This document shows positions 50,338 to 60,977 of a DNA stretch of 64,000 bases, piece by piece (position 1 is the first letter of the stretch; each line of letters opens with the position of its first letter). The stretch covers positions 49,173-113,172 of the forward strand of contig CAWJMT010000027.1 of assembly GCA_963844035.1 (NCBI GenBank). Direction: 5' to 3'. Source of the DNA: an uncultured Gemmatimonadales bacterium (GTDB taxonomy: Bacteria; Gemmatimonadota; Gemmatimonadetes; Gemmatimonadales; GWC2-71-9). Below the pieces are notes generated by a model. The model did no database searches. It saw only the letters and a program-made list of their open reading frames with translations, and had not been told where the DNA came from. Both the position numbers and the translations under genes were made by a program.

Positions 50338-50396
50338 GTCAGACCCCTGTGTCGAATTGTCGCACCCGGACCTTTGTTCTAGATTGGCCCAGTAAT

Positions 50397-51601
50397 ATGC
50401 CGCTTTCCTTCCGTCAGCGGATCTTCGTTGTGCTCGCCGCGTTGACGGCCGTCCCGACCATTCTCGCCGTGATCGGGTGGGCGCTCGCAGTCCGGGCAGG
50501 TGCTCCCTCGACGGGAGCGCGGGTGTCGCTCGAGCAGGTGGCCGTTTCGGCGCGGGAGATGCTCGAGCACGTGGACACGCTGCGGCTCGATCGCGACGAC
50601 CGCGCGGCGATGGGCCGCCACCTGGCGGAAATCTCGAACGCGGTGACCCTGTCGCGGCGCGCAGAGACGTATCTCCGCTACTACACGGCCGGCTTCGTCG
50701 CCGTGGTGCTGCTGCTCGGCCTGGTGGTCCTCTTTGCCGGCGTGCGGGTCGCCGGGCATCTGTCGCGACAGCTGTCACGTCCCATCGATGAGCTGGTGGG
50801 GTGGACGCGGCTGATCCGCCGGCGCCTGCCCCTCCCGGCCGGTCCCCCGTCGCGGGGCGCTCCCGAGTTCCAGGCGCTGCGCCAGGCGCTGCGCGAGCTG
50901 GTGGCAGCGATCGAAGCGGCCCGCGAGCACGAGCTCGAGTCGGAGCGCCAACGCGCGTTCCGCGAGGTGGCGCGGCGTGTGGCTCATGAAATCAAGAATC
51001 CGTTGACGTCCATGCGGATCGCGGTGGACCAGCTGGGGCGGGTCAGGCGGGCAGGCGGATGGACGGACGGCGATGGCACTCGAGGTGCTGGCCGCCGAGA
51101 CGGAACGGCTCGATCACCTGGCGCGCGAGTTCGCGGATTTCGGCCGGCTGCCGGAGGGAGCGCAGAGCGACGTCGATCTCGTGGAGCTGCTCGAGGATCT
51201 GGCGCGATCCGCGGTGCCGGACGGCGTGCGCGTCGTCGTGCGGGCGAACGGCGGGCGCCGGATCGCTCCCCGGCCACTACGATCCGCTGCGTCGCGCCTT
51301 CTCGAACCTGCTGCGGAATGCATCGGAGGCGATGGACGGACGCGGCGAGATCGACGTCGGCATCACCACCGACGGGGCCGCCGAGCGAAGCGGGTTGGTC
51401 GTGACGATCGCAGACCATGGCGCCGGGATTCCGGAGGAGCTGCGCCAGCGGGTGTTCGAGCCGTACTTCACCACCAAACACGATGGCACCGGCCTCGGAC
51501 TGGCGCTCGTCCGCCAGACGATCGAGGCCCATCGCGCGTCGATCCGCGTCGACGAGACACCGGGTGGCGGCGCGACCTTTACGATCGTGTTCCCCGCATG
51601 A
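50397..51601 (+). CDS. Sensor histidine kinase, NtrY-like (frameshifted)
   Basis: [39 protein letters not shown]. Confidence 0.9.
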
Positions 51602-52975
51602 GCCCCCGGATCCTGTTGGTGGACGACGAAGCCAACATCCGCCGCATGCTGGGCGCGCTGCTGCAGTCCGAAGGGTTCGAGACGGCGGAAGCGGCGAATG
51701 GAACCGCCGCCCTCGCCGCGCTGGAGGCGGCGGGTCCCGACGCGGTGCTGCTCGACTTGATGATGCCGGGCGGACCGGACGGCATCGCCACGCTCGAGCA
51801 GCTGAAACGCCGGGCGCCCGGATTTGCCGGTCGTCATGATGAGCGGCAAGGCGAGCCTCACCGATGCGGTGCGCGCGACCAAGCTCGGTGCCTTCCAGTT
51901 CCTCGAGAAGCCGCTGACGCCCGAGGGCTGCTGGTGGCGCTGCGGGCCGCGCTGGAGCTGTCCCGGACCCGCGCCGAGAACCAGCGCCTGCACGAGGCGC
52001 TGGGCCACAGCGATCCCCTGATCGGGCCGAGCCAGGCGCTGACCGAGGTGCGCGCGCGCATCGCGCTGATCGCCCCCACCGAGGCACGGGTGCTGATCAC
52101 CGGCGAGTCCGGCACGGGCAAGGAGCTGGTCGCCTCCGCGATCCACCAGCAGAGCACCCGCGCCGCGCGGCCGTTTGTGTGCGTGAACAGCGCGGCGATC
52201 CCCAAAGACCTGGTCGAGTCGGAGATGTTCGGGCACGAGCGCGGGGCGTTCACCGGCGCCGGCGAGCGGCGTCACGGCCGCTTCGAGCTCGCCGACGGCG
52301 GCACGCTGTTCCTCGATGAGGTCGGCGATCTCGGCCCCGAGGCCCAGGCCAAGCTGCTGCGCGTGCTCGAAACCGGTGTGATCGAGCGGCTCGGCGGCGA
52401 ACGGCCGACCACGGTCGACGTGCGCGTGATCGCAGCCACCAACAAAGGCCTCGCGAAAGCCGCGCAGCAAGGGCAGTTCCGCGAGGACCTGCTGTTCCGC
52501 CTCGACGTGCTCCCGATTCATATCCCGCCGCTACGGGAGCGGACCGACGACATCGCCCCGCTGGCGCACCACTTCGCCGCGCGCCAGCAGGCGCCGCTTG
52601 AGACGGCCGGTGCGCTTCGACGGCGGCGCCATCCCGCTCCTCACCGGCTACGGCTGGCCGGGGAACGTGCGCGAGCTGGCCAACATCGTCGAGCGGCTCG
52701 CGATTCTCGCGGGAAGCGAAGTGATCAGCGCCGACGACGTGGCCCGCGTGCTTCCGAACAGCGCGGGCGCGGTGGCGTCGGGGGAGGGCGCGTGGGCCGA
52801 CGTGGCGCTGTCGGACGCGCTCGACCGCTACGAGCGCACGTTGATCGCGCGGGCCCTGTCGGCCGCGCAAGGCAACGTCGCCGACGCGGCCCGCAAGCTC
52901 GCGACCGACCGCGCGAACCTCTACCGCCGGATGCGCCGCCTCGGGCTCGAGCCGCCGCGTACCGCGCCCGGATGA
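51598..52975 (+). CDS. Sigma-54-dependent response regulator, NtrC/NtrX family (frameshifted)
   Basis: Receiver domain, [22 protein letters not shown], Fis HTH. Confidence 0.93.
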
Positions 52976-52998
52976 CACCCTCGTCCCAGGACAGGCTT

Positions 52999-54753
52999 AT
53001 GCGTTCCATTTTCCTCGCCGCCCTCGCGCTGGCTGGCCCGGCGCTGGCCGCCGCGCAGCAGACCGCGCAGGACACGGCCATCGTCATCAATCCCGACAGC
53101 ACTACCAAAGCCGCGGCTCCGGAAGGAATCCCGCCGGCGGTCGCGAAGGAGGCAGTGCGGTTCTTCAACGCCGCCACTACGACGCGGCTGGTGGGCCGCA
53201 CGCACCTGCCCCACCGCAACGAGTGGCACGGCGACGTCGCCGTCCGTAACGGGTCGGTCGATCTGGCGGGACGCATCAAGGGCAGCCTGTTGGTCATCAA
53301 CGGCGACGCGACGCTCGACTCGACGGCGGAGGTGACCGGCAGCGTCACCGTGGTCGGCGGCTCGGTCACCGTCGCGCCCGGCGCGCAGGTCGGCGGCGCG
53401 GTCCACGCGTATCGCGAGACGCTCAACTACCGCTCGAACGGTGAAGAAATCGCGCTGGCGCCCAATCCCAGGAGCCGCATCCCGTTCATCGGCGCCCGGA
53501 AGACCTGGGCGGGCACGGAGTCGTACTCGGCGTTGGCGATCGCCACCGGCGGCACGTTCAACCGCATCGAGGCACTCCCCGTGGTGCTCGGACCGGAGTT
53601 CGCCTGGCGCGTGCGCGAGGGTTTCGGCGTGCGGCTGGATGCCCTCGCGATCGTCCGCACGGTGGGCAACGTGGGCGAGGGCGAACCGAGCACGCTCGGC
53701 TACATCGTGAACTCGGAGGTTCGCTCGGGCGCTCCGCGGGGTTTCGGGGCCGGACTGCGGCTGTACAGCGAGCTGGGGTCGGTCGAGAGCTGGGCCCTCA
53801 CGGACGCGGAGGTCGGCTGGGCCTCGTTTCTCTTCCAGCGCGACTACCGCGACTACTACTTCACGCGCGGCCTGCACGGCCGGCTGTTCGCGCAGCCGAC
53901 CCTGCCCCTCCGGGTGTCGCTGGGGCTCGGCTATGACTGGCAGACCAGCGTCCAGGCCCGCGACCCGTGGACGCTCACCAACACCAAGGACGCCTGGCGG
54001 CCCAACCCGCCGATGGATGCCGGACACTACACCACGCTCACCACCTCGGTGACGTTCGACACCCGCAACGACCACGAGCAGCCGACCGCGGGGTGGCTCG
54101 TCGATGCACAGCTCGACAACGGCTGGGCGCCCGACGTCAGCCCTCAGGTCCTGCCGATCGCCGTGCGGGAGGCGATTCCGACCGACGGCTCGTATCACTT
54201 CCACCGCCTGTTCCTCGACATCCGCCGCTACACGCGGGTGAGCCCGGGCGGGCGAGTCAATTTCCGCCTGATCGCGGGGGGCTGGCTGGGCGGCGATCCC
54301 CTCCCGCTGCAACAACGCCTCTCGCTCGGCGGCGCGGGCGGCATGCCGGGCTACCCATTCCGGCGCACGGCGTGCAACGGCGACATCACCGATCCCGCGT
54401 TCGCCGGCAGCCTGGTCGCAGCGTGCGACCGCGTGCTGCTCACGCAGGTGGAATACCGCGGGCATCTCTCGCTGCACTGGGCGTACGGCCGGTCGCGCCC
54501 CGAGGACGAGACGAGAAAGTCGCCCCTCACCCTGCAGGGGCCCGACCTGGTGGTGTTCGGCGACGCGGGGCAGGCGTGGCTGGTGGGTGAAGGCCCGGGA
54601 CGGCTGCCGGCCAACCGCCTTCCCACGATCAGCAGCTGGCTGGCGGACCTGGGACTGGGCATGGATTGGGGAGGCTTTGGCGTGTACGTCGCGAAAGCGG
54701 TGACATCCGGGGAACCGCTGCGCGTCACGCTGCGACTCGTCCACCGCTTCTAG
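52999..54753 (+). CDS. Outer-membrane protein with bactofilin-like N-terminal repeats and BamA/TamA-like barrel
   Basis: Signal peptide, GDVAVRNGSV repeats, FDTRND, SLGG..MPGY, terminal HRF. Confidence 0.7.
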   Translation: MRSIFLAALALAGPALAAAQQTAQDTAIVINPDSTTKAAAPEGIPPAVAKEAVRFFNAATTTRLVGRTHLPHRNEWHGDVAVRNGSVDLAGRIKGSLLVINGDATLDSTAEVTGSVTVVGGSVTVAPGAQVGGAVHAYRETLNYRSNGEEIALAPNPRSRIPFIGARKTWAGTESYSALAIATGGTFNRIEALPVVLGPEFAWRVREGFGVRLDALAIVRTVGNVGEGEPSTLGYIVNSEVRSGAPRGFGAGLRLYSELGSVESWALTDAEVGWASFLFQRDYRDYYFTRGLHGRLFAQPTLPLRVSLGLGYDWQTSVQARDPWTLTNTKDAWRPNPPMDAGHYTTLTTSVTFDTRNDHEQPTAGWLVDAQLDNGWAPDVSPQVLPIAVREAIPTDGSYHFHRLFLDIRRYTRVSPGGRVNFRLIAGGWLGGDPLPLQQRLSLGGAGGMPGYPFRRTACNGDITDPAFAGSLVAACDRVLLTQVEYRGHLSLHWAYGRSRPEDETRKSPLTLQGPDLVVFGDAGQAWLVGEGPGRLPANRLPTISSWLADLGLGMDWGGFGVYVAKAVTSGEPLRVTLRLVHRF

Positions 54754-54754
54754 A

Positions 54755-55365
54755 GTGCGGAGCTGGGTCGCAGGTATCCTGCTCCTCGTCGGGGCGGCGG
54801 CGTCGGCCGCCGCTCAGGACCCGTCGCTCACGGTGACGCTGCAGAACGGCGTGCCCCGCGTGCAGGCCGCCGAGCTGCTCGCCAACGGAAAATTCCTGGG
54901 GCTGATGCGTTCCGGGTTTCCGCTGCGGCTGCACTACCGGCTCGAGCTGTGGCGCACGAAATCCGGGTGGTTCGACGACCACATGAATGAAACCGCGTGG
55001 GATGTCGTCGCGCACTACGATCCCCTGGCCGACGACTTCGTGCTCGTGCGCACCGGCGGCATCGCGACGCGCTACGCGCGCGTCGAAGCGCTGGCGCAGG
55101 CGCTCCAGGTCCCCTACAAGGTGACGCTCGCCCCCAAGGGAGCGGGGAGCTACTACTACCTGTGCCGGCTGGAGATCTCGACGCTGAACGACACGGATCT
55201 ACGGGAAGTGCAGCAGTGGCTCAAGGGGGACGTGTCTCCCGCGGTCACCGGCCGGGTGGGGACCTGACCAATGCCGTGGTGCTGGGCGCGCAACGGGTGC
55301 TGGTACGAATCGCGGGGTTGCCGCGGCTGACGCTGGAGGCGAGGTCGGGGGAGTTCAAGAAATAG
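54755..55365 (+). CDS. DUF4390-like exported protein (frameshift near 55255)
   Basis: SGFPLRLHYRLELWR, YDPL. Confidence 0.6.
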
Positions 55366-55426
55366 GTGTCAGGTGTCAGGTGTCAGTCAGGTGTCAGGTG
55401 TCAGGTGTCAGGTGTCAGGTGTCAGG
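55364..55426 (+). repeat. (GGTGTCA)n heptamer array, left arm
   Basis: About 8 units, inverted relative to 55899-55934. Confidence 0.9.
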
Positions 55427-55822
55427 CGCGTTCTTGAGAGCCCGGGTGAGTCCGGAAAGCATTTTGCCAATCTCACTCGCTTGCAGTAAGAATTTGCTCC
55501 TCCTCTTCCTTCTTGCACGTAGCCCCTCCGCCCGGCGATCAGAACTTGAGTTTCCAACTCCATCAAGGAGCCGTTTGCGATCGACAGGTGGCGAAGGTAG
55601 TCGCCGAGATGGTCTCCTCCCGTGTCCCTCGGCAATGTTCGACGGAACAGACACAGCTGCGCGCCTCAGTTGCTGAGCGAGCCCGTACTTCTCCTCCTTA
55701 GGGAAAGAATCGGTCAGACGGTATGCCTCAACCACGAGATCCATCGCCCGTCCCCAAACAAGGAGGTCACGGAATCCATTGATGAGCCGCCGCGGCGGTT
55801 CATTCGGCTTGTCCAGGATCAT
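55415..55822 (-). CDS. Four-helix-bundle protein (23S-rRNA-IVP / Avd-like family; frameshifted)
   Basis: FRDLLVW..AMDL, FPKEEKYGL..QLRRAAVSVPSNIAEG, ANGSLMELETQ, KMLSGL. Confidence 0.92.
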   Translation of the reverse strand: MILDKPNEPPRRLINGFRDLLVWGRAMDLVVEAYRLTDSFPKEEKYGLAQQLRRAAVSVPSNIAEGHGRRPSRRLPSPPVDRKRLLDGVGNSSSDRRAEGLRARRKRRSKFLLQASEIGKMLSGLTRALKNAPDT

Positions 55823-55898
55823 CGTGTGTGTGACGGAGTCTACAGAACTTGAGTCTGCGAAGGCACACCATTTTGCGGCGAGGACTACCAGATTAGCG

Positions 55899-55934
55899 CA
55901 CACCTGACACCTGACACCCGACACCTGACACCTG
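55899..55934 (-). repeat. (CACCTGA)n heptamer array, right arm
   Basis: About 5 units. Confidence 0.9.
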
Positions 55935-55940
55935 CCTCTC

Positions 55941-56348
55941 TCAGCTCCCGAACTGCGCGTCGATTGCCTTACGAATCTCTTTGAGAGAGTTCCTTGAGCC
56001 GGCCATTTTCGCGGCCATCATCGCTTCTCCCATACAGATGTCGCAGTAGGCTCCGTGGTCGGTCTCGAAGCAGGTGAGCAGCGACCGGTGGCCGATCGAC
56101 TTGCTGCAGTTGCAATGGCAGTAGATGCCGTCGAGCACCTGCGGCGCGCGGCGTGCGGCCTCGTAGGCCTCGAGCGTTCCGGCGCCCACCGGCACCATCC
56201 CCGGCGGCAGGACCCGCTCCGCGGTAATACCGGGGCGCGGATCGGGGTGGATGATGGCGCTGGCGCCCGCCGGCGCGCTGTTCATGGTCATGACCACGAC
56301 GAGCCCCACAACCGCCGCACCGCCCACCACCCAGGGCAGCTTGCTCAT
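55941..56348 (-). CDS. PCYCGC-motif-like membrane-anchored protein
   Basis: IYCHCNC, HRSLLTCF, HGAYCDIC, IRKAID. Confidence 0.75.
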   Translation of the reverse strand: MSKLPWVVGGAAVVGLVVVMTMNSAPAGASAIIHPDPRPGITAERVLPPGMVPVGAGTLEAYEAARRAPQVLDGIYCHCNCSKSIGHRSLLTCFETDHGAYCDICMGEAMMAAKMAGSRNSLKEIRKAIDAQFGS

Positions 56349-56896
56349 AGCCCCTCGAGGGTGGCCAGCACGTCGGCCCCGTAGAACAGCCGGATGTAGC
56401 GGGACTGGACCGATGGTGAGGCGCCGCACCGCCCACGCGAGGTGCACGAAGTGCGGCTCGACGGGTGGCTGCAGCGGGTGCATCCCGACCTCCGCGGGGA
56501 GGAGGTTGCCCTTGCGCGTGTTACAGGTCGAGCACGCCGTGAGGACGTTGGTCCAGGCGTTCGAGCCGCCGCGCGAGATCGGGCACGAGGTGGTCCCGCG
56601 TGAGGCATTCGCGGTGGCGCAGCTCGTGCTGGTGGCGGCCGCAGAACTGGCAGCGGTAGTTGTCGCGGGCGAACAGGAACGTGTTGGTGACCTGGCGGCG
56701 GAAGCGGCGCGGCACGTGGACGAACTTGACCAGGCGAATCACGGCCGGACGCGGCATCGGCGAGGCGCTCGCTGCGCACAACGGAGCCGTCCGCCTCGAC
56801 GATCTCCGCTTTGCGGTCGATCACCAGGCGTAGCGCCCGGCGCACGGGCACCATGGTCAGCGGCTCGAAGGACGCGTTCAGCGCCAGACAGCGCAC
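56345..56896 (-). CDS. HNH endonuclease (frameshifted)
   Basis: LALNASFEPL, FARDNYRCQFCG, TRDHL, WTNVLTACSTCNTRKGN. Confidence 0.9.
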   Translation of the reverse strand: MRCLALNASFEPLTMVPVRRALRLVIDRKAEIVEADGSVVRSERLADAASGRDSPGQVRPRAAPLPPPGHQHVPVRPRQLPLPVLRPPPARAAPPRMPHAGPPRARSRAAARTPGPTSSRRARPVTRARATSSPRRSGCTRCSHPSSRTSCTSRGRCGASPSVQSRYIRLFYGADVLATLEGL

Positions 56897-56983
56897 GAGA
56901 CTCTCCCGCGAAAAAAGGCCGTCTCACCCCGGAGGAGCGGGACGGCATCATATGGTACACAAACAGCTTAGGCGCGGCAAGCG

Positions 56984-57065
56984 GGCGACGGTCGAGGACG
57001 GTCGAAGGACGGTCAAGGACGGTCCTCACCCCCTGACCCCCTCTCCGCATTCGCGGAGAGGGGAG
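56984..57065. repeat. Decamer tandem (GGACGGTCGA)n plus REP-like hairpin CCTCACCCCCTGACCCCCTCTCC..GGAGAGGGG
   Basis: The hairpin recurs at 58757-58796; the decamer complement occurs at 57445-57475. Confidence 0.7.
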
Positions 57066-57226
57066 ACGCAAGGCGACCGCATTTCGCAAAGGATTGCACA
57101 CGAGCAGCGTTGCTTCGGTACGGAGGCCGCGACCGACACGTCTACATTCGCCGCGCGGCACGGTGGCGCGTGCATGGTCCGTCGTCTCGGCCTTCGGGCT
57201 TACCAGTGGTTCGCAACCGGTATGGT

Positions 57227-57310
57227 GCTGGCGTGGCGAAACTGGTAAACGCGGCAACCTCACACGTTGCTGGGCGCGAGCCCTTGTGGGTTCGAATCCC
57301 ACCGCCAGCA
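57227..57310 (+). tRNA. Non-canonical tRNA: Leu-type class II body with CAC (Val) anticodon
   Basis: GCTGGCG/CGCCAGC-A73; D-arm GGCGAAACTGGTAAACGC; stem GCAAC-CTCACAC-GTTGC; V-arm GGGC-GCGA-GCCC; T-arm GTGGG-TTCGAAT-CCCAC. Confidence 0.85.
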
Positions 57311-57326
57311 CCGCCGTATTTTGCCA

Positions 57327-57355
57327 TTGCGTCACCACGACGTTGCCGATATTTT
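57327..57355 (+). promoter_or_regulatory. Putative sigma-70 promoter of anti-tRNA sRNA 1
   Basis: TTGCGT-N17-TATTTT; equivalent hexamers in all three copies. Confidence 0.6.
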
Positions 57356-57361
57356 GCGACC

Positions 57362-57442
57362 ACGTGTGAGGTTGCCGCGTAGCCAGTTGCGCTACGCCGA
57401 AGAAAGCCGGGAGCGTGATGCTTACCGGCTTTCGTCTTTTCT
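57362..57442 (+). ncRNA. Putative anti-tRNA small RNA 1
   Basis: First 19 nt are the exact reverse complement of 57249-57267, then near-complement of the D-arm; ends in the GAAAGCCGG/CCGGCTTTC hairpin. Confidence 0.65.
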
Positions 57443-57491
57443 GCCCGCCCTCGTCCGCCTTCCACCGCCGCCGTTCCGTGATACGGACACC

Positions 57492-57510
57492 GTATGCATA
57501 TTCTGCATAC
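57492..57510. promoter_or_regulatory. Palindromic operator upstream of the antitoxin
   Basis: GTATGCA-TATTC-TGCATAC perfect inverted repeat. Confidence 0.55.
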
Positions 57511-57531
57511 TCCACATTCGGGAGACGTTGT

Positions 57532-57771
57532 ATGGGACACAAGGTGCGCAAGACGCTGAACATTGACGCAGACAAACTGAAGCGCGCGCAGGACTACCTG
57601 GGGCTCGACACTGAGACCGAGGTGATTGACCTGCTACTCAACCGGCTGCTGGACGATTGCGAATTCGAGCGCGAACTGGCGGAACTGAACCGCGAATTCG
57701 GGACAGTCCTCAAGGGTTTCCGGTCCCCGCTCGTTGCGCGCCTAAAGCCGCGGCTCGGCATCTCCCGCTAA
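57532..57771 (+). CDS. VapB-like (RHH) antitoxin, orphan
   Basis: RKTLNIDADKLKRAQDYLGLDTETEVID pattern; GGAGA RBS. Confidence 0.65.
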   Translation: MGHKVRKTLNIDADKLKRAQDYLGLDTETEVIDLLLNRLLDDCEFERELAELNREFGTVLKGFRSPLVARLKPRLGISR

Positions 57772-57895
57772 AGCGGGTCTGCGCCGCCCGTTCACGGGCA
57801 GGTGCCGAGCCGCGAGTTCACTCGCGCACTCCAACACACGCCGAGCCGCCGTCCGGCCATATTGCCACCGTGCCCGCTCCCAGCTCCCCTCCCCC

Positions 57896-58747
57896 GTGAC
57901 CCTCCCCCAACTCCTCACGTTGCTGCGCAAATCGGTGGTGGCGTGGTATGACGACGACTGTTCCAGCATGGGCGCGGCGCTCGCCTTCTACACGCTCTTC
58001 TCCATCGCTCCGCTGCTCGTGATTGTCGTCGGCGTCGGGAGCCTGATTTTCGGCCGCGATGCCGCCCACGCGCAGATCCTCGGCCAGGTGCGCGCACTCA
58101 TGGGCGACGCCGGCGCCCAGGCCGTCGCGGACCTCTTCAATAGCGCGAACAGCCCCGCGACCAGCGCCCTCACCGCACTGGTGGGTACCATCTTCCTGCT
58201 GTTCGGCGCGACGGCCGTGTTCACTGAGGTGTACGGCAATTTCGACCGCATCTGGCGCAACCCCTCCCCTCCCAAAGCCAGCGGCATCTGGGAACTCGTC
58301 CGCACCCGCATCCTGTCGTTCGGGATGCTCCTCAGCATCGGATTCCTGCTGCTCATCTCGCTTGTCATGTCGGCCGGCATCGCGGCGGCCGGCGACTGGT
58401 GGTGGATCGGCTTTCTGCGCTGGCCGCTCGTGGGCAAGGCCGTCCGCGTGATCGTGAGCCTCGCCACCTACACGTTGGCCTTCGCGATGATCTACAAGGT
58501 TCTGCCCCGCGCAAGCATCCACTGGCACGACGTCTGGACCGGCGCGGCGGTGACCGCCGCGTTGTTCGAGATCGGCAAGCTGTTCATCGGGTGGTACCTC
58601 GCAAGCAGCATCACGTCGGTGCTCGGCGCAGCCGGCTCGCTTGTGGTGCTGCTCGTCTGGCTCTACTACTCGGCGCAGGTGTTCCTGCTCGGTGCGGAGT
58701 TCACCAAGGTGTACGCCTATCGGCGCGGGTCGCGTTCGGGAAAGTAG
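57896..58747 (+). CDS. YihY/BrkB family membrane protein
   Basis: MGAALAFYTLFSIAPLL, IYKVLP, GAAGSLVVLLVWLYYSAQVFLLGAEF. Confidence 0.93.
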   Translation: MTLPQLLTLLRKSVVAWYDDDCSSMGAALAFYTLFSIAPLLVIVVGVGSLIFGRDAAHAQILGQVRALMGDAGAQAVADLFNSANSPATSALTALVGTIFLLFGATAVFTEVYGNFDRIWRNPSPPKASGIWELVRTRILSFGMLLSIGFLLLISLVMSAGIAAAGDWWWIGFLRWPLVGKAVRVIVSLATYTLAFAMIYKVLPRASIHWHDVWTGAAVTAALFEIGKLFIGWYLASSITSVLGAAGSLVVLLVWLYYSAQVFLLGAEFTKVYAYRRGSRSGK

Positions 58748-58846
58748 CTGACGTGACCTCACCCCCTGACCCCCTCTCCCTATCGGGAGAGGGGGAACGC
58801 GCGGGACGTGTCGCGACATCACCGCCTTCGACCGCCCTCGTCCGCC

Positions 58847-58921
58847 CAGTTCTGTGAATCGGATGATGCTCGCGTAGAAATGGTTACGCCCTGCCATCAG
58901 AACCCGGTACGGTTGAGGCCA
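58847..58921 (+). repeat. Conserved ~75-nt non-coding element B1
   Basis: Differs from 61086-61160 at about 8 positions. Confidence 0.7.
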
Positions 58922-58991
58922 GTCCTCTCTCCCCCGGCTCGTGAGGTGGCTCTTGACTCGGCACGCACCATCGCCAACGATTCCGTCAGCC

Positions 58992-59268
58992 ATGCCGGTC
59001 ACGATTCCCTCCGCAGCCCTGCGCCAGATGAGCGAGGCGGAGCGCACGCGGCTTCTCGATGCCGCGTTCGCGCACTCGCCTGAGGCCCTGGCCAACTATC
59101 TCGCCGTGCTCGACGCCCGCATCCGGGTGTTCGAGCAGCGCTACGAGCTGCCGACGTCGGCGCTTCCTGAAGCCATGGCCTCCGGCCAGCTCCGGGACAC
59201 GGCAGACGTGAGTGAGTGGCTGTTCTGGGCACAGCTGCGGAGTGACCTTGCCCGGGAAGCACGGCTAA
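58992..59268 (+). CDS. TumA-like antitoxin
   Basis: FEQRYELPT...SGQLRDTADVSEW pattern; overlaps the toxin start; its stop needs a small indel correction. Confidence 0.6.
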
Positions 59269-59712
59269 CCGCCTCGGCAACTACCTCGACGTTCACGACT
59301 CCCACATCGCGGACCTCATCGCCGAGGGGTTCGTGGTGGAAGATCAGTCGCGGTTCATTTTCCTGCCGGTCTCGTGGTGCTGGAGGGTGTGATCGTTTGC
59401 CTTGACCGCATCAGACTTGAGGTGCGGAAGGAGATCGAGGTCCTGGAGGGACGCGGGATGGCCGCTCGCGTGGACTCGTCGGTTCCGGTATCACGCCTGG
59501 CTACGCGGCGTCTACAACGTCCTGCGGTACGAATCCGCTCACGAACACCGCCCGCACCCTCACAAGCACGTGTACGACACGTTCGGTCACGGACGCGAGC
59601 CGAGTGTCATTGACTTGAGAAAGAGGATGATGTTCCGACGCTCGGCGAGGTTCTGCGGGAGTTGCAGGCGTGGCACGAGGGGAACGCGGCCAGGCTGAAG
59701 TATCTGAAGTGA
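59248..59712 (+). CDS. DUF6516/TumE-like toxin (frameshifted)
   Basis: Stitched frames give FRYHAW...VLRYESAHEHRPHPHKH...PTLGEVLREL. Confidence 0.6.
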
Positions 59713-59752
59713 GGTCATTGCGCCGCGAAAACCTTGACGATATTCTTCGATC

Positions 59753-59832
59753 ACTTGCGGGGTTGCCGCGTAGCCAGTTGCGCTACGCCGAAGAAAGCCG
59801 GGGAGCGTGATGCTCACCGGCTTTCGTCGTCT
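59753..59832 (+). ncRNA. Putative anti-tRNA small RNA, orphan copy
   Basis: Promoter TTGCGC-N17-TATTCT (59718-59746); same body and hairpin; anti-loop TTGCGGG. Confidence 0.6.
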
Positions 59833-59869
59833 CCGCCCAGTGAACCCCGGGGCCGTCCTCGTCGCGGGT

Positions 59870-59905
59870 TACCCCGGGGCACGGCCCCGGGGTAAACCCA
59901 CCCGG
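59870..59905. repeat. REP-like CCCCGGGGCAC.GCCCCGGGGTAAACCCACCCGG element
   Basis: Recurs at 61000-61035. Confidence 0.6.
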
Positions 59906-60107
59906 ATGAGATCCCAACGATGACCGCCTTCGCCCGCCTTCCACCGCCGTCCTTCGTCGGATCCGTCGCAAGAATTCGGTATGCGTAGCGTTGCTGCGGT
60001 ACGCAGGCCGCGACCAACGCTTCTACATTCGCGCCGCGGCACGGTGGCGTTTGCATGGTCCGTCGTCCTGGCCTTCGGGCTTACCAGTGGTTCGCAACCG
60101 GAATGGT

Positions 60108-60191
60108 GCTGGCGTGGCGAAACTGGTAAACGCAGTAACCTTGCAAGTTGCCGGGCGTGAGCCCTTGTGGGTTCGAATCCCACCGCCAGCA
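60108..60191 (+). tRNA. Non-canonical tRNA: Leu-type class II body with TGC (Ala) anticodon
   Basis: Near-identical to 57227-57310; stem GTAAC-CTTGCAA-GTTGC; U3:A70, so no G3:U70. Confidence 0.85.
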
Positions 60192-60246
60192 CCGCCGCGT
60201 TCTTTTGCCATTGCGCCGCCAAGACCTGACTCGATATTGTTCGACC

Positions 60247-60326
60247 ACTTGCAAGGTTGCCGCGTAGCCAGTTCGCTACGTCAAGAAAGCCGGAGAGCGT
60301 CATGCTCACCGGCTTTCGTCGTTTCT
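60247..60326 (+). ncRNA. Putative anti-tRNA small RNA 2
   Basis: Promoter TTGCGC-N18-TATTGT (60211-60240); starts ACTTGCAAGGTT, complementary to the TGC anticodon arm. Confidence 0.65.
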
Positions 60327-60452
60327 GCCCCGTCGTTTCTGTCCCGCTAACCCCGCACCGCGTTTGCTTCCCGACACCGCCTTTGCCTTCCCGACACCGC
60401 CTTCGGCCTTCAACCGCCCTCGCCCGCCCACCTGTCCCACCGACCCGTATAT

Positions 60453-60977
60453 TTGACCTCGCGCGACAGCATCAACACCCAGCTGCGCGCGGCGTTGGAC
60501 GGTGCCACGGCGCAGTGGGGGATCAAGATTGTGCGGGTGGAGCTGAAGAACATCACGCCACCGGAGGAGATTCGCCTCACGATGGAGAAGCAGATGACCG
60601 CCGAGCGGAGCCGGCGGGCCGTGGTCACGACCGCGGAGGGCGAGAAATCGTCCGCGATTCTGCGCGCCGAGGGGCTGAAGCAGGCGGCGATCGTCACGGC
60701 CGAAGGAGAGAAGCAGTCCGCGATTCTCAGTGCCGAAGGTCAGGCCGAAGCACGGCTGCGTGTGGCGGGGGCCGAGGCGCAGGCGCTGCGGGTGGTGGCT
60801 GAAGCGCTCGGGAAGGACGGCAAGCCGGCGCAATACCTCATCGCCAAGAGCTATCTCGAGTCACTGACCGGCATCGCGAGCGATGCCCAGAAGGTCGTCT
60901 TCATGCCGTTCGAAGCATCCTCGGCGATGGCGTCGATCGGGGCGATCAAGGAGTTGTGGGGGGCGACGGGGGGGTGA
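60453..60977 (+). pseudogene. N-terminally truncated SPFH/stomatin (QmcA-like) gene
   Basis: Begins mid-domain at LTSRDSIN; WGIKIVRVELKNI, MEKQMTAER, AEGEK repeats. Confidence 0.8.

Follow-up and report, generated by a model that had tools for sequence, protein, structure and literature searches.

The DNA analysed here is a 64,000-nt stretch of a contig from an uncultured Gemmatimonadales bacterium (the window). It carries an intact tRNA gene, confirmed to combine a Leu-type body with a Val anticodon, together with the elements listed in Table 1. ARAGORN reports a tRNA-Val(CAC) with a long variable arm at 57227-57312, and the Rfam tRNA model scores 59 bits over 57227-57310. All stems are paired, including the 4-bp variable stem (GGGC/GCCC). 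The anticodon loop reads CU-CAC-AC (57259-57265), and the body has A73 at 57310, A15 with U48, G18G19, A20a and C2-G71. A preliminary description of this DNA had noted A73, A15/U48, a Leu-type D loop, a 4-bp variable arm and the CAC triplet; all of these are read in the sequence, and both programs call the gene a tRNA. Downstream, positions 57362-57380 are a 19-nt perfect inverted match to 57249-57267. The whole module takes up about 330 nt.

Table 1. Features of the Leu-body tRNA modules in the window
Feature	Position	Strand	Basis or remark
TTCGGTAC-like conserved motif, 22-29 nt ahead of the -10-like box	57114..57121	+	matrix, 132/147 members
-10-like box TACATT, predicted tRNA promoter	57143..57148	+	family TANNNT peak
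Conserved leader of ~75 nt, start approximate	57153..57226	+	imperfect antisense to D and anticodon arms
tRNA with Leu body, predicted toxin, CCA not encoded	57227..57310	+	ARAGORN, Rfam, sequence
CAC (Val) anticodon	57261..57263	+	sequence, ARAGORN
Trailer CCGCCG	57311..57318	+	complements both ends of the leader
Predicted sigma70 promoter of the small RNA (TTGCGT, 17 nt, TATTTT)	57327..57355	+	
Predicted antitoxin small RNA, ~80 nt	57362..57441	+	5' tail complementary to anticodon loop and stem
Terminator hairpin of the predicted small RNA, T-rich tail	57402..57433	+	
Orphan small-RNA gene (TTGCGC-17-TATTCT), start ~59753	59718..59833	+	no preceding tRNA
Promoter motifs and leader, second module	59975..60107	+	88% repeat of 57089-57316
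tRNA of the second module, UGC (Ala) anticodon on the same Leu body	60108..60191	+	ARAGORN, Rfam
Promoter and predicted small RNA (start ~60247) of the second module	60211..60326	+	matches UGC-AA loop of the second tRNA

When the anticodon arm is masked, the closest match of the tRNA body is the tRNA-Leu(CAG) of its own genome (score 93.5). The five own-genome Leu genes (CAG, CAA, TAA, TAG) score 93.5 to 79, compared with only 33.5-41 for the own-genome Val and Ala tRNAs. The D arm is identical to that of a canonical Leu(CAA) gene in a relative locus (L018). A73 and C2-G71 are each present in 122/126 family members, and G3.U70, the identity mark of alanine, in 0/126; the A15-U48, G18G19 and A20a of the homologues are partly imposed by the search patterns. 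Among 26 aligned members the cloverleaf, with a 7/5 helix pattern, is 99.7% paired, and 12 of its 24 pairs have changed on both sides. A73, A15-U48, G18G19 and A20a are Leu determinants in E. coli and C2-G71 is an anti-Ser element, while tRNA-Val is recognised mainly by A35, C36 and A73, with G20, G45, G3-C70 and U4-A69 as minor elements (PMC9976931). The 57227 tRNA has A35, C36 and A73 and lacks G20, G3-C70 and U4-A69. Competition by ValRS, which had been raised earlier, may occur and is a fair concern for CAC members alone, because these hold the main Val determinants A35, C36 and A73. A Leu anticodon is found neither here nor in any of the 150 antisense-bearing members (0/150). Leu miscoding by the 57227 tRNA is probable.

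The CAC triplet recurs in three own-genome copies and in 38/150 members. Sequencing error, against which the preliminary description had argued, is excluded by this recurrence rather than by reads: a soil run yielded two 151-nt pieces, matching 57086-57236 with 0 differences and 57291-57441 with 1 difference, and none of the pieces among the matches listed for that run spans the anticodon. The window's genome holds canonical Val (CAC, TAC, GAC), Ala and Leu tRNAs, so the 57227 tRNA is an extra gene. Of 346 aligned GTG sites, 68% are occupied by Val and 8% by Leu in homologues, close to the figures at 257 aligned GTC sites (65% and 11%); by this comparison GUG still codes valine in the window's genome. 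With normal Val tRNAs present and GUG read as Val, miscoding, if it occurs, is probably suppressed for the greater part of the time.

Relatives were collected by pattern scans of named genomes (at least 118 loci; A37 required, with C or U as the last anticodon base), metagenomes (at least 120 loci; anticodon open, A37 required) and viral contigs (46 loci). BLAST against 41 genomes also returned relatives with CGC, GGC and CAC anticodons in the same layout. Among the matches listed, the named records that bear the layout are mostly Gemmatimonadota, the others being Planctomycetota, a single bin of Gammaproteobacteria and an unclassified bacterium. A strict pattern matches 18 of 401 Gemmatimonadota genomes, with up to four matches per genome. 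The family is patchy, multicopy and mostly from Gemmatimonadota. A side observation is a tandem pair of Leu-like UGC tRNAs within a repeated unit in Azospirillum (L084).

The family comprises 11 anticodons and about 50 anticodon-stem sequences. Leu identity and probable insertion of Leu at GUG agree with the evidence; the earlier picture of a single tRNA-Leu point mutant acting on GUG is too narrow for this diversity. Ala anticodons are carried by 73 of the 150 antisense-bearing members, CAC by 38 and Asp or Glu anticodons by 28. In the metagenome sample, 116 unique genes among the matches listed comprise 16 Leu(CAA) and 100 non-Leu genes (Ala 46, Val 29, Asp 11, Glu 11, Thr 2, Gly 1). Anticodons end in C, and so read GNN codons, in 147/150 members; the search patterns may account for part of this C36 bias, and it also appears in the metagenome scan, where the anticodon was left open. 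In none of 401 genomes does such a body occur with C, G or U at position 37. The codons read by the five commonest anticodons rank 1, 5, 9, 2 and 8 in the window's genome. C33 replaces U33 in 41/150 members, which may weaken decoding. Although the anticodon stem takes 50 sequences among 126 members, 611/630 positions pair. Six non-overlapping pairs of members are at least 85% identical elsewhere and differ in the anticodon, and the antisense matches the anticodon in each. On a tree of 137 rows we count 59 anticodon changes (67-80 with shuffled labels), a figure inflated by a short and poorly resolved alignment. Since members are related, all of these counts overstate independence and do not represent independent events.

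The downstream antisense follows the anticodon closely. Among non-Leu members chosen by their acceptor stem, six with too little flank having been dropped, a downstream 7-mer pairs with the member's own loop in 139/141; the two exceptions carry the antisense upstream (L237) or have a broken acceptor stem (L290). With 11 members found through the antisense added, the pooled figure is 150/152. When loops are set against members with another anticodon, 637/3519 match. Genes with the same body and a Leu anticodon have the antisense in 1/17 cases, and the metagenome Leu(CAA) genes long enough to score in 0/15. Anticodon position 34 is Watson-Crick paired with the antisense in 150/150 members. In a covariation alignment of 26 sequences, taken from 100 diverse candidates, the helix between tRNA and small RNA is 92.5% paired and 13 of its 16 pairs have changed on both sides, compared with 33-50% pairing in slid controls. 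At positions 31-33, G.U pairs outnumber A.C mismatches by 42 to 4, although the register search itself favours G.U. The predicted binding gain of the small RNA is -38.3 kcal/mol with its own tRNA and -11.6 with the host tRNA-Val(CAC). Taken together, this pairing makes antisense control of the Leu-body tRNA very likely. The GTG that matches the CAC anticodon, previously used as a check against sequencing error, does lie within the 19-nt match; it is more than such a check, as it belongs to a predicted regulatory small RNA.

No intact core-family tRNA lacks an antisense gene among the loci listed. Orphan small-RNA genes or remnants do occur, two in the window's genome and two in a second genome (G043). 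A small-RNA pattern, too strict to serve as an orphan census, found 3/151 genomes. Orphan antisense genes without lone intact tRNAs are the asymmetry expected of a toxin and its antitoxin. Outside the core set, 24 of 86 non-Leu cases with A73 have a match of at least 12 nt within 250 nt, some of these being tandem copies or T-arm matches. About 60 Leu-like tRNAs that have A73 and an anticodon for Gly, Asp, Glu or Ala (loci L031-L194) show no antisense within 250 nt; they span many phyla as well as viral contigs.

The antisense is predicted to be a separate small-RNA gene. A TTG-N3-(16-18)-NANNNT motif lies in 150/150 spacers between tRNA and antisense, compared with 3.7% of shuffles and 1/17 Leu controls. 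The -35/-10 spacing is 17 nt in 111/150 spacers, the -10 box ends 8 nt ahead of the anti-loop in 92/150 members, and the expected start is A or G in about 91%. A GC-rich hairpin with a T-rich tail lies 3' of the antisense in 136/149 members; 12/150 shuffles pass a similar, not identical, test. A consensus promoter and terminator scan of 56700-60600 found nothing at thresholds of 9 of 12 matches and loops of 3-8; because these thresholds are stricter than the sites, promoter and terminator become visible only by family comparison. In the predicted fold, the first 15 nt of the small RNA are unpaired and correspond exactly to the anticodon-arm match, while its hairpin complements the tRNA D arm. 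The small-RNA region has frequent small indels across members and neither a conserved start codon nor a conserved ORF length, the commonest ATG position being shared by 15/149. Over the locus, Rfam finds the tRNA family only, with no match to SdsR/RyeA or CreTA. The module is uncovered in two public RNA runs (best runs at most 0.15 of words), which says nothing on its expression.

The placement of the small RNA also varies. Promoter, antisense and terminator are found together as a complete unit upstream of the tRNA in L237 and the viral contig L040. In three Saccharibacteria loci (L132, L144, L077), whose Leu-like tRNAs have an ACC (Gly) anticodon, the antisense gene is convergent on the opposite strand; it has a promoter motif of its own and shares a terminator. 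In five planctomycete loci (L175, L106, L164, L104, L173) and the viral L057, the small RNA is directed at the 3' anticodon stem and the variable arm. Among viral contigs, none of the 40 scored of 46 has the downstream anti-anticodon layout; L040, L057 and L034 have other antisense layouts, that of L034 without a promoter motif. From upstream or opposite-strand positions the small RNA must act in trans, and fold-back of a joint transcript is thus not the sole mode.

The tRNA appears to have its own promoter and a partly complementary leader. A TANNNT peak lies 80-89 nt ahead of the tRNA across members, and the TTCGGTAC-like motif is too distant from it for a normal sigma70 -35 box. The leader contains a UUCG hairpin and a 5' GCGG able to pair with the trailer. 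This end pairing is present in 85/147 members (33% crosswise), and in some members GCGAG/CTCGC takes the place of GCGG/CCGC. In hok mRNA, pairing of the precursor's ends delays activation; the ends of the Leu-body tRNA precursor can pair as well. The antisense character of the leader has a median z of -2.64, with z of -3 or below in 64/147 members and 1/17 Leu controls, and an anti-loop sequence occurs in 53/147 members, compared with 11.6% crosswise. Across 74 members, the median predicted probability of the anticodon stem falls from 0.79 in the mature tRNA to 0.39 with the leader and to 0.0 with the antisense joined in one strand. In the 57227 copy the leader pairing is weak (z -2.3), and the fold of leader plus tRNA is no better than shuffles (z -0.79). 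Its leader fits the UGC loop of the neighbouring copy better than CAC, while its small RNA fits CAC perfectly, which suggests a recent anticodon switch in this copy.

The window's genome has four intact Leu-body family tRNAs, three with CAC and one with UGC. The UGC copy, 88% identical to the first over 228 nt, lies within the window, and contig C4 holds two further intact CAC copies and one 3' stub. In all intact copies the downstream antisense fits the anticodon loop of that copy, and for every one of the four tRNAs the best pairing partner is the small RNA of the same copy. The orphan small RNA at 59718-59833 complements a CGC-anticodon loop. 3' stubs of the tRNA with their own antisense were found twice (G000:C4:410187, the window's genome, and L344). 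Four long 'tRNAs' (C3:289541, C4:258731, C4:295294, C31:135238) were set aside as having no tRNA consensus motifs.

Five of five congeners have an empty site, where the HNH gene (56345-56896 in the window) directly precedes a gene starting with MWGGRF, which we take to be argH-like. In the window's genome the MWGGRF gene is found close to the beginning of a different contig; the module therefore stands at the head of an accessory region of 7 kb or more, whose GC content is lower (0.637 vs 0.673). Low-threshold ARAGORN calls in the congener loci were disregarded as lying inside coding DNA. Among 123 ORFs at 47 loci (the top three ORFs per locus, within ~1.5 kb) there is no conserved neighbour, integrase, Cas partner or synthetase. 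Type II-like toxin or antitoxin genes (RelE, PIN, HepT, PBECR2) adjoin 6/47 loci as a raw count; Uma2 genes adjoin five and a transposase one. The module has no plasmid match. An addiction-protected mobile element is not evident, because integrase, conserved partner gene and plasmid match are all absent. In L133 and L099 the module lies opposite-strand within or overlapping predicted frames (RNase E/G-like, dehydrogenase).

We favour, with moderate confidence, the reading that the Leu-body tRNA and the small RNA antisense to its anticodon arm form an RNA-only toxin-antitoxin pair in which a miscoding tRNA is the toxin. Host LeuRS would charge the tRNA with Leu, and the charged tRNA would read a common codon (here GUG), placing wrong residues throughout the proteome. 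In E. coli, missense tRNAs cause arrest (PMC5389517, PMC10404621). The small RNA, transcribed separately, would invade the anticodon loop with its free 5' end and unzip the anticodon and D arms, leaving the tRNA inactive, while the leader would provide a weaker lock within the precursor itself and slow maturation. If the small RNA ceased to be made, through DNA loss, phage host shut-off or stress, the tRNA, as the more stable of the two, would be released and would arrest the cell. Joint change of anticodon arm and small RNA would give a new specificity, which we propose as the reason for the several non-identical copies per genome. Weighing against this reading are the main Val determinants of CAC members, the C33 of 41/150 members, the lack of an evident mobile element, the many other Leu-like tRNAs with wrong anticodons but no antisense nearby, and the modest leader pairing. 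A broader claim has slightly better than an even chance: that these modules represent a widespread, unrecognised class in Gemmatimonadota, Planctomycetota, Saccharibacteria and viral contigs, with a LeuRS-charged missense tRNA as toxin and a dedicated anti-tRNA small RNA as antitoxin in at least three layouts, diversifying by anticodon-arm swaps and killing by corruption of the code.

Other explanations deserve consideration. Mistranslation could be useful and regulated, the tRNA being released under stress to diversify the proteome and the small RNA serving as a dimmer. Expression of tRNA-ProX raised the carbenicillin tolerance of E. coli (PMC10404621), Val- or Ala-to-Leu exchanges are fairly mild, the C33 of many members suggests attenuation, and no mobile element was found nearby. 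However, the Asp and Glu anticodons would cause drastic substitutions, and the rapid anticodon turnover, the orphan small RNAs, the absence from most genomes and the lack of a conserved neighbour fit a selfish or defensive module better, which makes this explanation unlikely. A toxin or decoy that does not miscode, acting by uncharged stalling of ribosomes, as a sink for LeuRS or as bait for an anticodon nuclease, and neutralised by the small RNA, seems rather unlikely as well: all Leu determinants are kept, the anticodons track the commonest codons, and a decoy needs no anticodon-matched silencing RNA. Such a role would agree with allo-tRNAs that killed E. coli without measurable suppression (PMC5389517), with the RNase-type toxin genes beside 6/47 loci, again as a raw count, and with a conserved leader GGU whose pairing with A73-C74-C75 could hinder end processing.

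The antisense could alternatively be the 3' part of a single fold-back transcript, or an inverted repeat in the DNA that stems from an integration or duplication event. The full transcript does fold with the cloverleaf destroyed, and the 3' stubs with their own antisense show recombination at these genes. We regard both versions as very improbable: the promoter motif in every spacer at a fixed distance, the upstream and opposite-strand placements and the missing integrase argue against them, as does the excess of G.U over A.C at 31-33, which is as expected for RNA of this strand, with the reservation about the register search given above. Read-through fold-back may nevertheless add to silencing. 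Equally low is the probability of an ordinary extra tRNA charged according to its anticodon (Val here) and controlled by antisense. CAC members do have A35, C36 and A73, but the same body bears Ala anticodons in nearly half of the members without G3.U70, Asp and Glu anticodons occur with A73, the 57227 copy lacks the minor Val elements, and the host has canonical Val and Ala tRNAs. Finally, CAC is one change from CAG or CAA, which might point to reassignment of GUG to Leu, to sequencing error or to a decayed pseudogene; the first is contradicted by the Val preference of homologues at GTG, as at GTC, and the others by many independent copies and compensatory changes, so that the probability of this group is minimal.

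The proposed toxin-antitoxin pair resembles several known systems in part. In type VIII SdsR-RyeA both partners are RNAs and the antitoxin masks the toxin by antisense pairing (PMC8610362), and the module likewise has predicted non-coding RNA partners without a conserved ORF and an antitoxin complementary to the toxin; it has no homology to SdsR/RyeA or CreTA. SdsR is an mRNA-targeting sRNA that RyeA overlaps on the opposite strand (PMC8610362), whereas the toxin predicted here is a tRNA, and its antisense gene stands apart from it, can change position and is directed at the anticodon arm. CreTA likewise combines a decoding-disturbing RNA toxin, an RNA antitoxin and an addiction role, but CreT sequesters a rare tRNA and CreA represses the CreT promoter through Cascade (PMC12737573); here the neighbours include no Cas partner and the tRNA itself is the predicted toxin. 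The small antisense RNA with a free 5' end recalls type I hok/sok, in which, however, the Hok toxin is a peptide (PMC8610362), unlike the present module with no conserved start or ORF length.

Natural tRNAs with mismatched identities provide further parallels. Allo-tRNAs have a long arm, an identity/anticodon mismatch and diverse anticodons, are toxic in E. coli and are found near toxin-antitoxin genes (Mukai et al., 2017, PMC5389517). Their acceptor branches are 8/4 or 9/3 and their identity is Ser or Ala, as opposed to the canonical 7/5 branch and Leu identity here, and neither 'antisense' nor 'complementary' occurs in the main text (PMC5389517). The tRNA-ProX of Streptomyces is also a natural mistranslating family with several anticodons per body and toxicity in E. 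coli, but it has Pro identity and is encoded with a dedicated ProRSx (PMC10404621, PMC11415595), while the Leu body has no synthetase partner. The word 'antisense' appears in neither main text (PMC10404621, PMC11415595), in contrast to the antisense RNA of the Leu-body module. A tRNA-LysT/tRNA-ArgU heterodimer shows that a bacterial tRNA can be sequestered by base pairing, between two canonical tRNAs, with no dedicated small RNA and no miscoding (bioRxiv 10.64898/2026.09.02.748885). Among the matches listed from a mostly open-access literature, no tRNA is silenced by a dedicated antisense RNA. The C4 RNA of phages P1 and P7 has the opposite arrangement to the Leu-body module, because there the antisense role falls to the tRNA-like molecule. 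The same literature matches describe neither an anticodon-directed small RNA that silences a tRNA nor mistranslation as a toxin mechanism. If the proposed pair is real, it would be a natural example of a small RNA that arose to silence a tRNA by way of the anticodon, and of mistranslation serving as a toxin mechanism. It might also explain why bacteria retain tRNAs with mismatched identity and anticodon, a question left open in the allo-tRNA and tRNA-ProX papers (PMC5389517, PMC10404621, PMC11415595), and could supply natural orthogonal tRNA/anti-tRNA pairs for switchable decoding. Anticodon-based annotation would then mislabel Leu-body genes as Val, Ala, Asp or Glu tRNAs.

Several minor features of the window lie around the modules. 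PADLOC gave no match for six window proteins. A small VapB-like ORF (57533-57771; Pfam E 0.007, below cut-off) stands just past the terminator without an adjoining toxin gene. Two short, seemingly frameshifted ORFs at 58941-59700, with no Pfam or PADLOC match, are arranged like a toxin-antitoxin pair ahead of the orphan small RNA. The kinase, response regulator, HNH and SPFH genes at 50349-56896 and 60453-60977 look frameshifted or truncated, possibly through assembly errors. A gene for a 23S rRNA-IVP protein (four-helix bundle) at 55364-55937 lies between inverted GGTGTCA heptamer arrays and is missing at this place in congeners. A REP-like repeat at 57024-57069 and 58757-58802 has many copies in the window's genome and in congeners, and two more repeat families are seen at 59872/61001 and 58847/61086.
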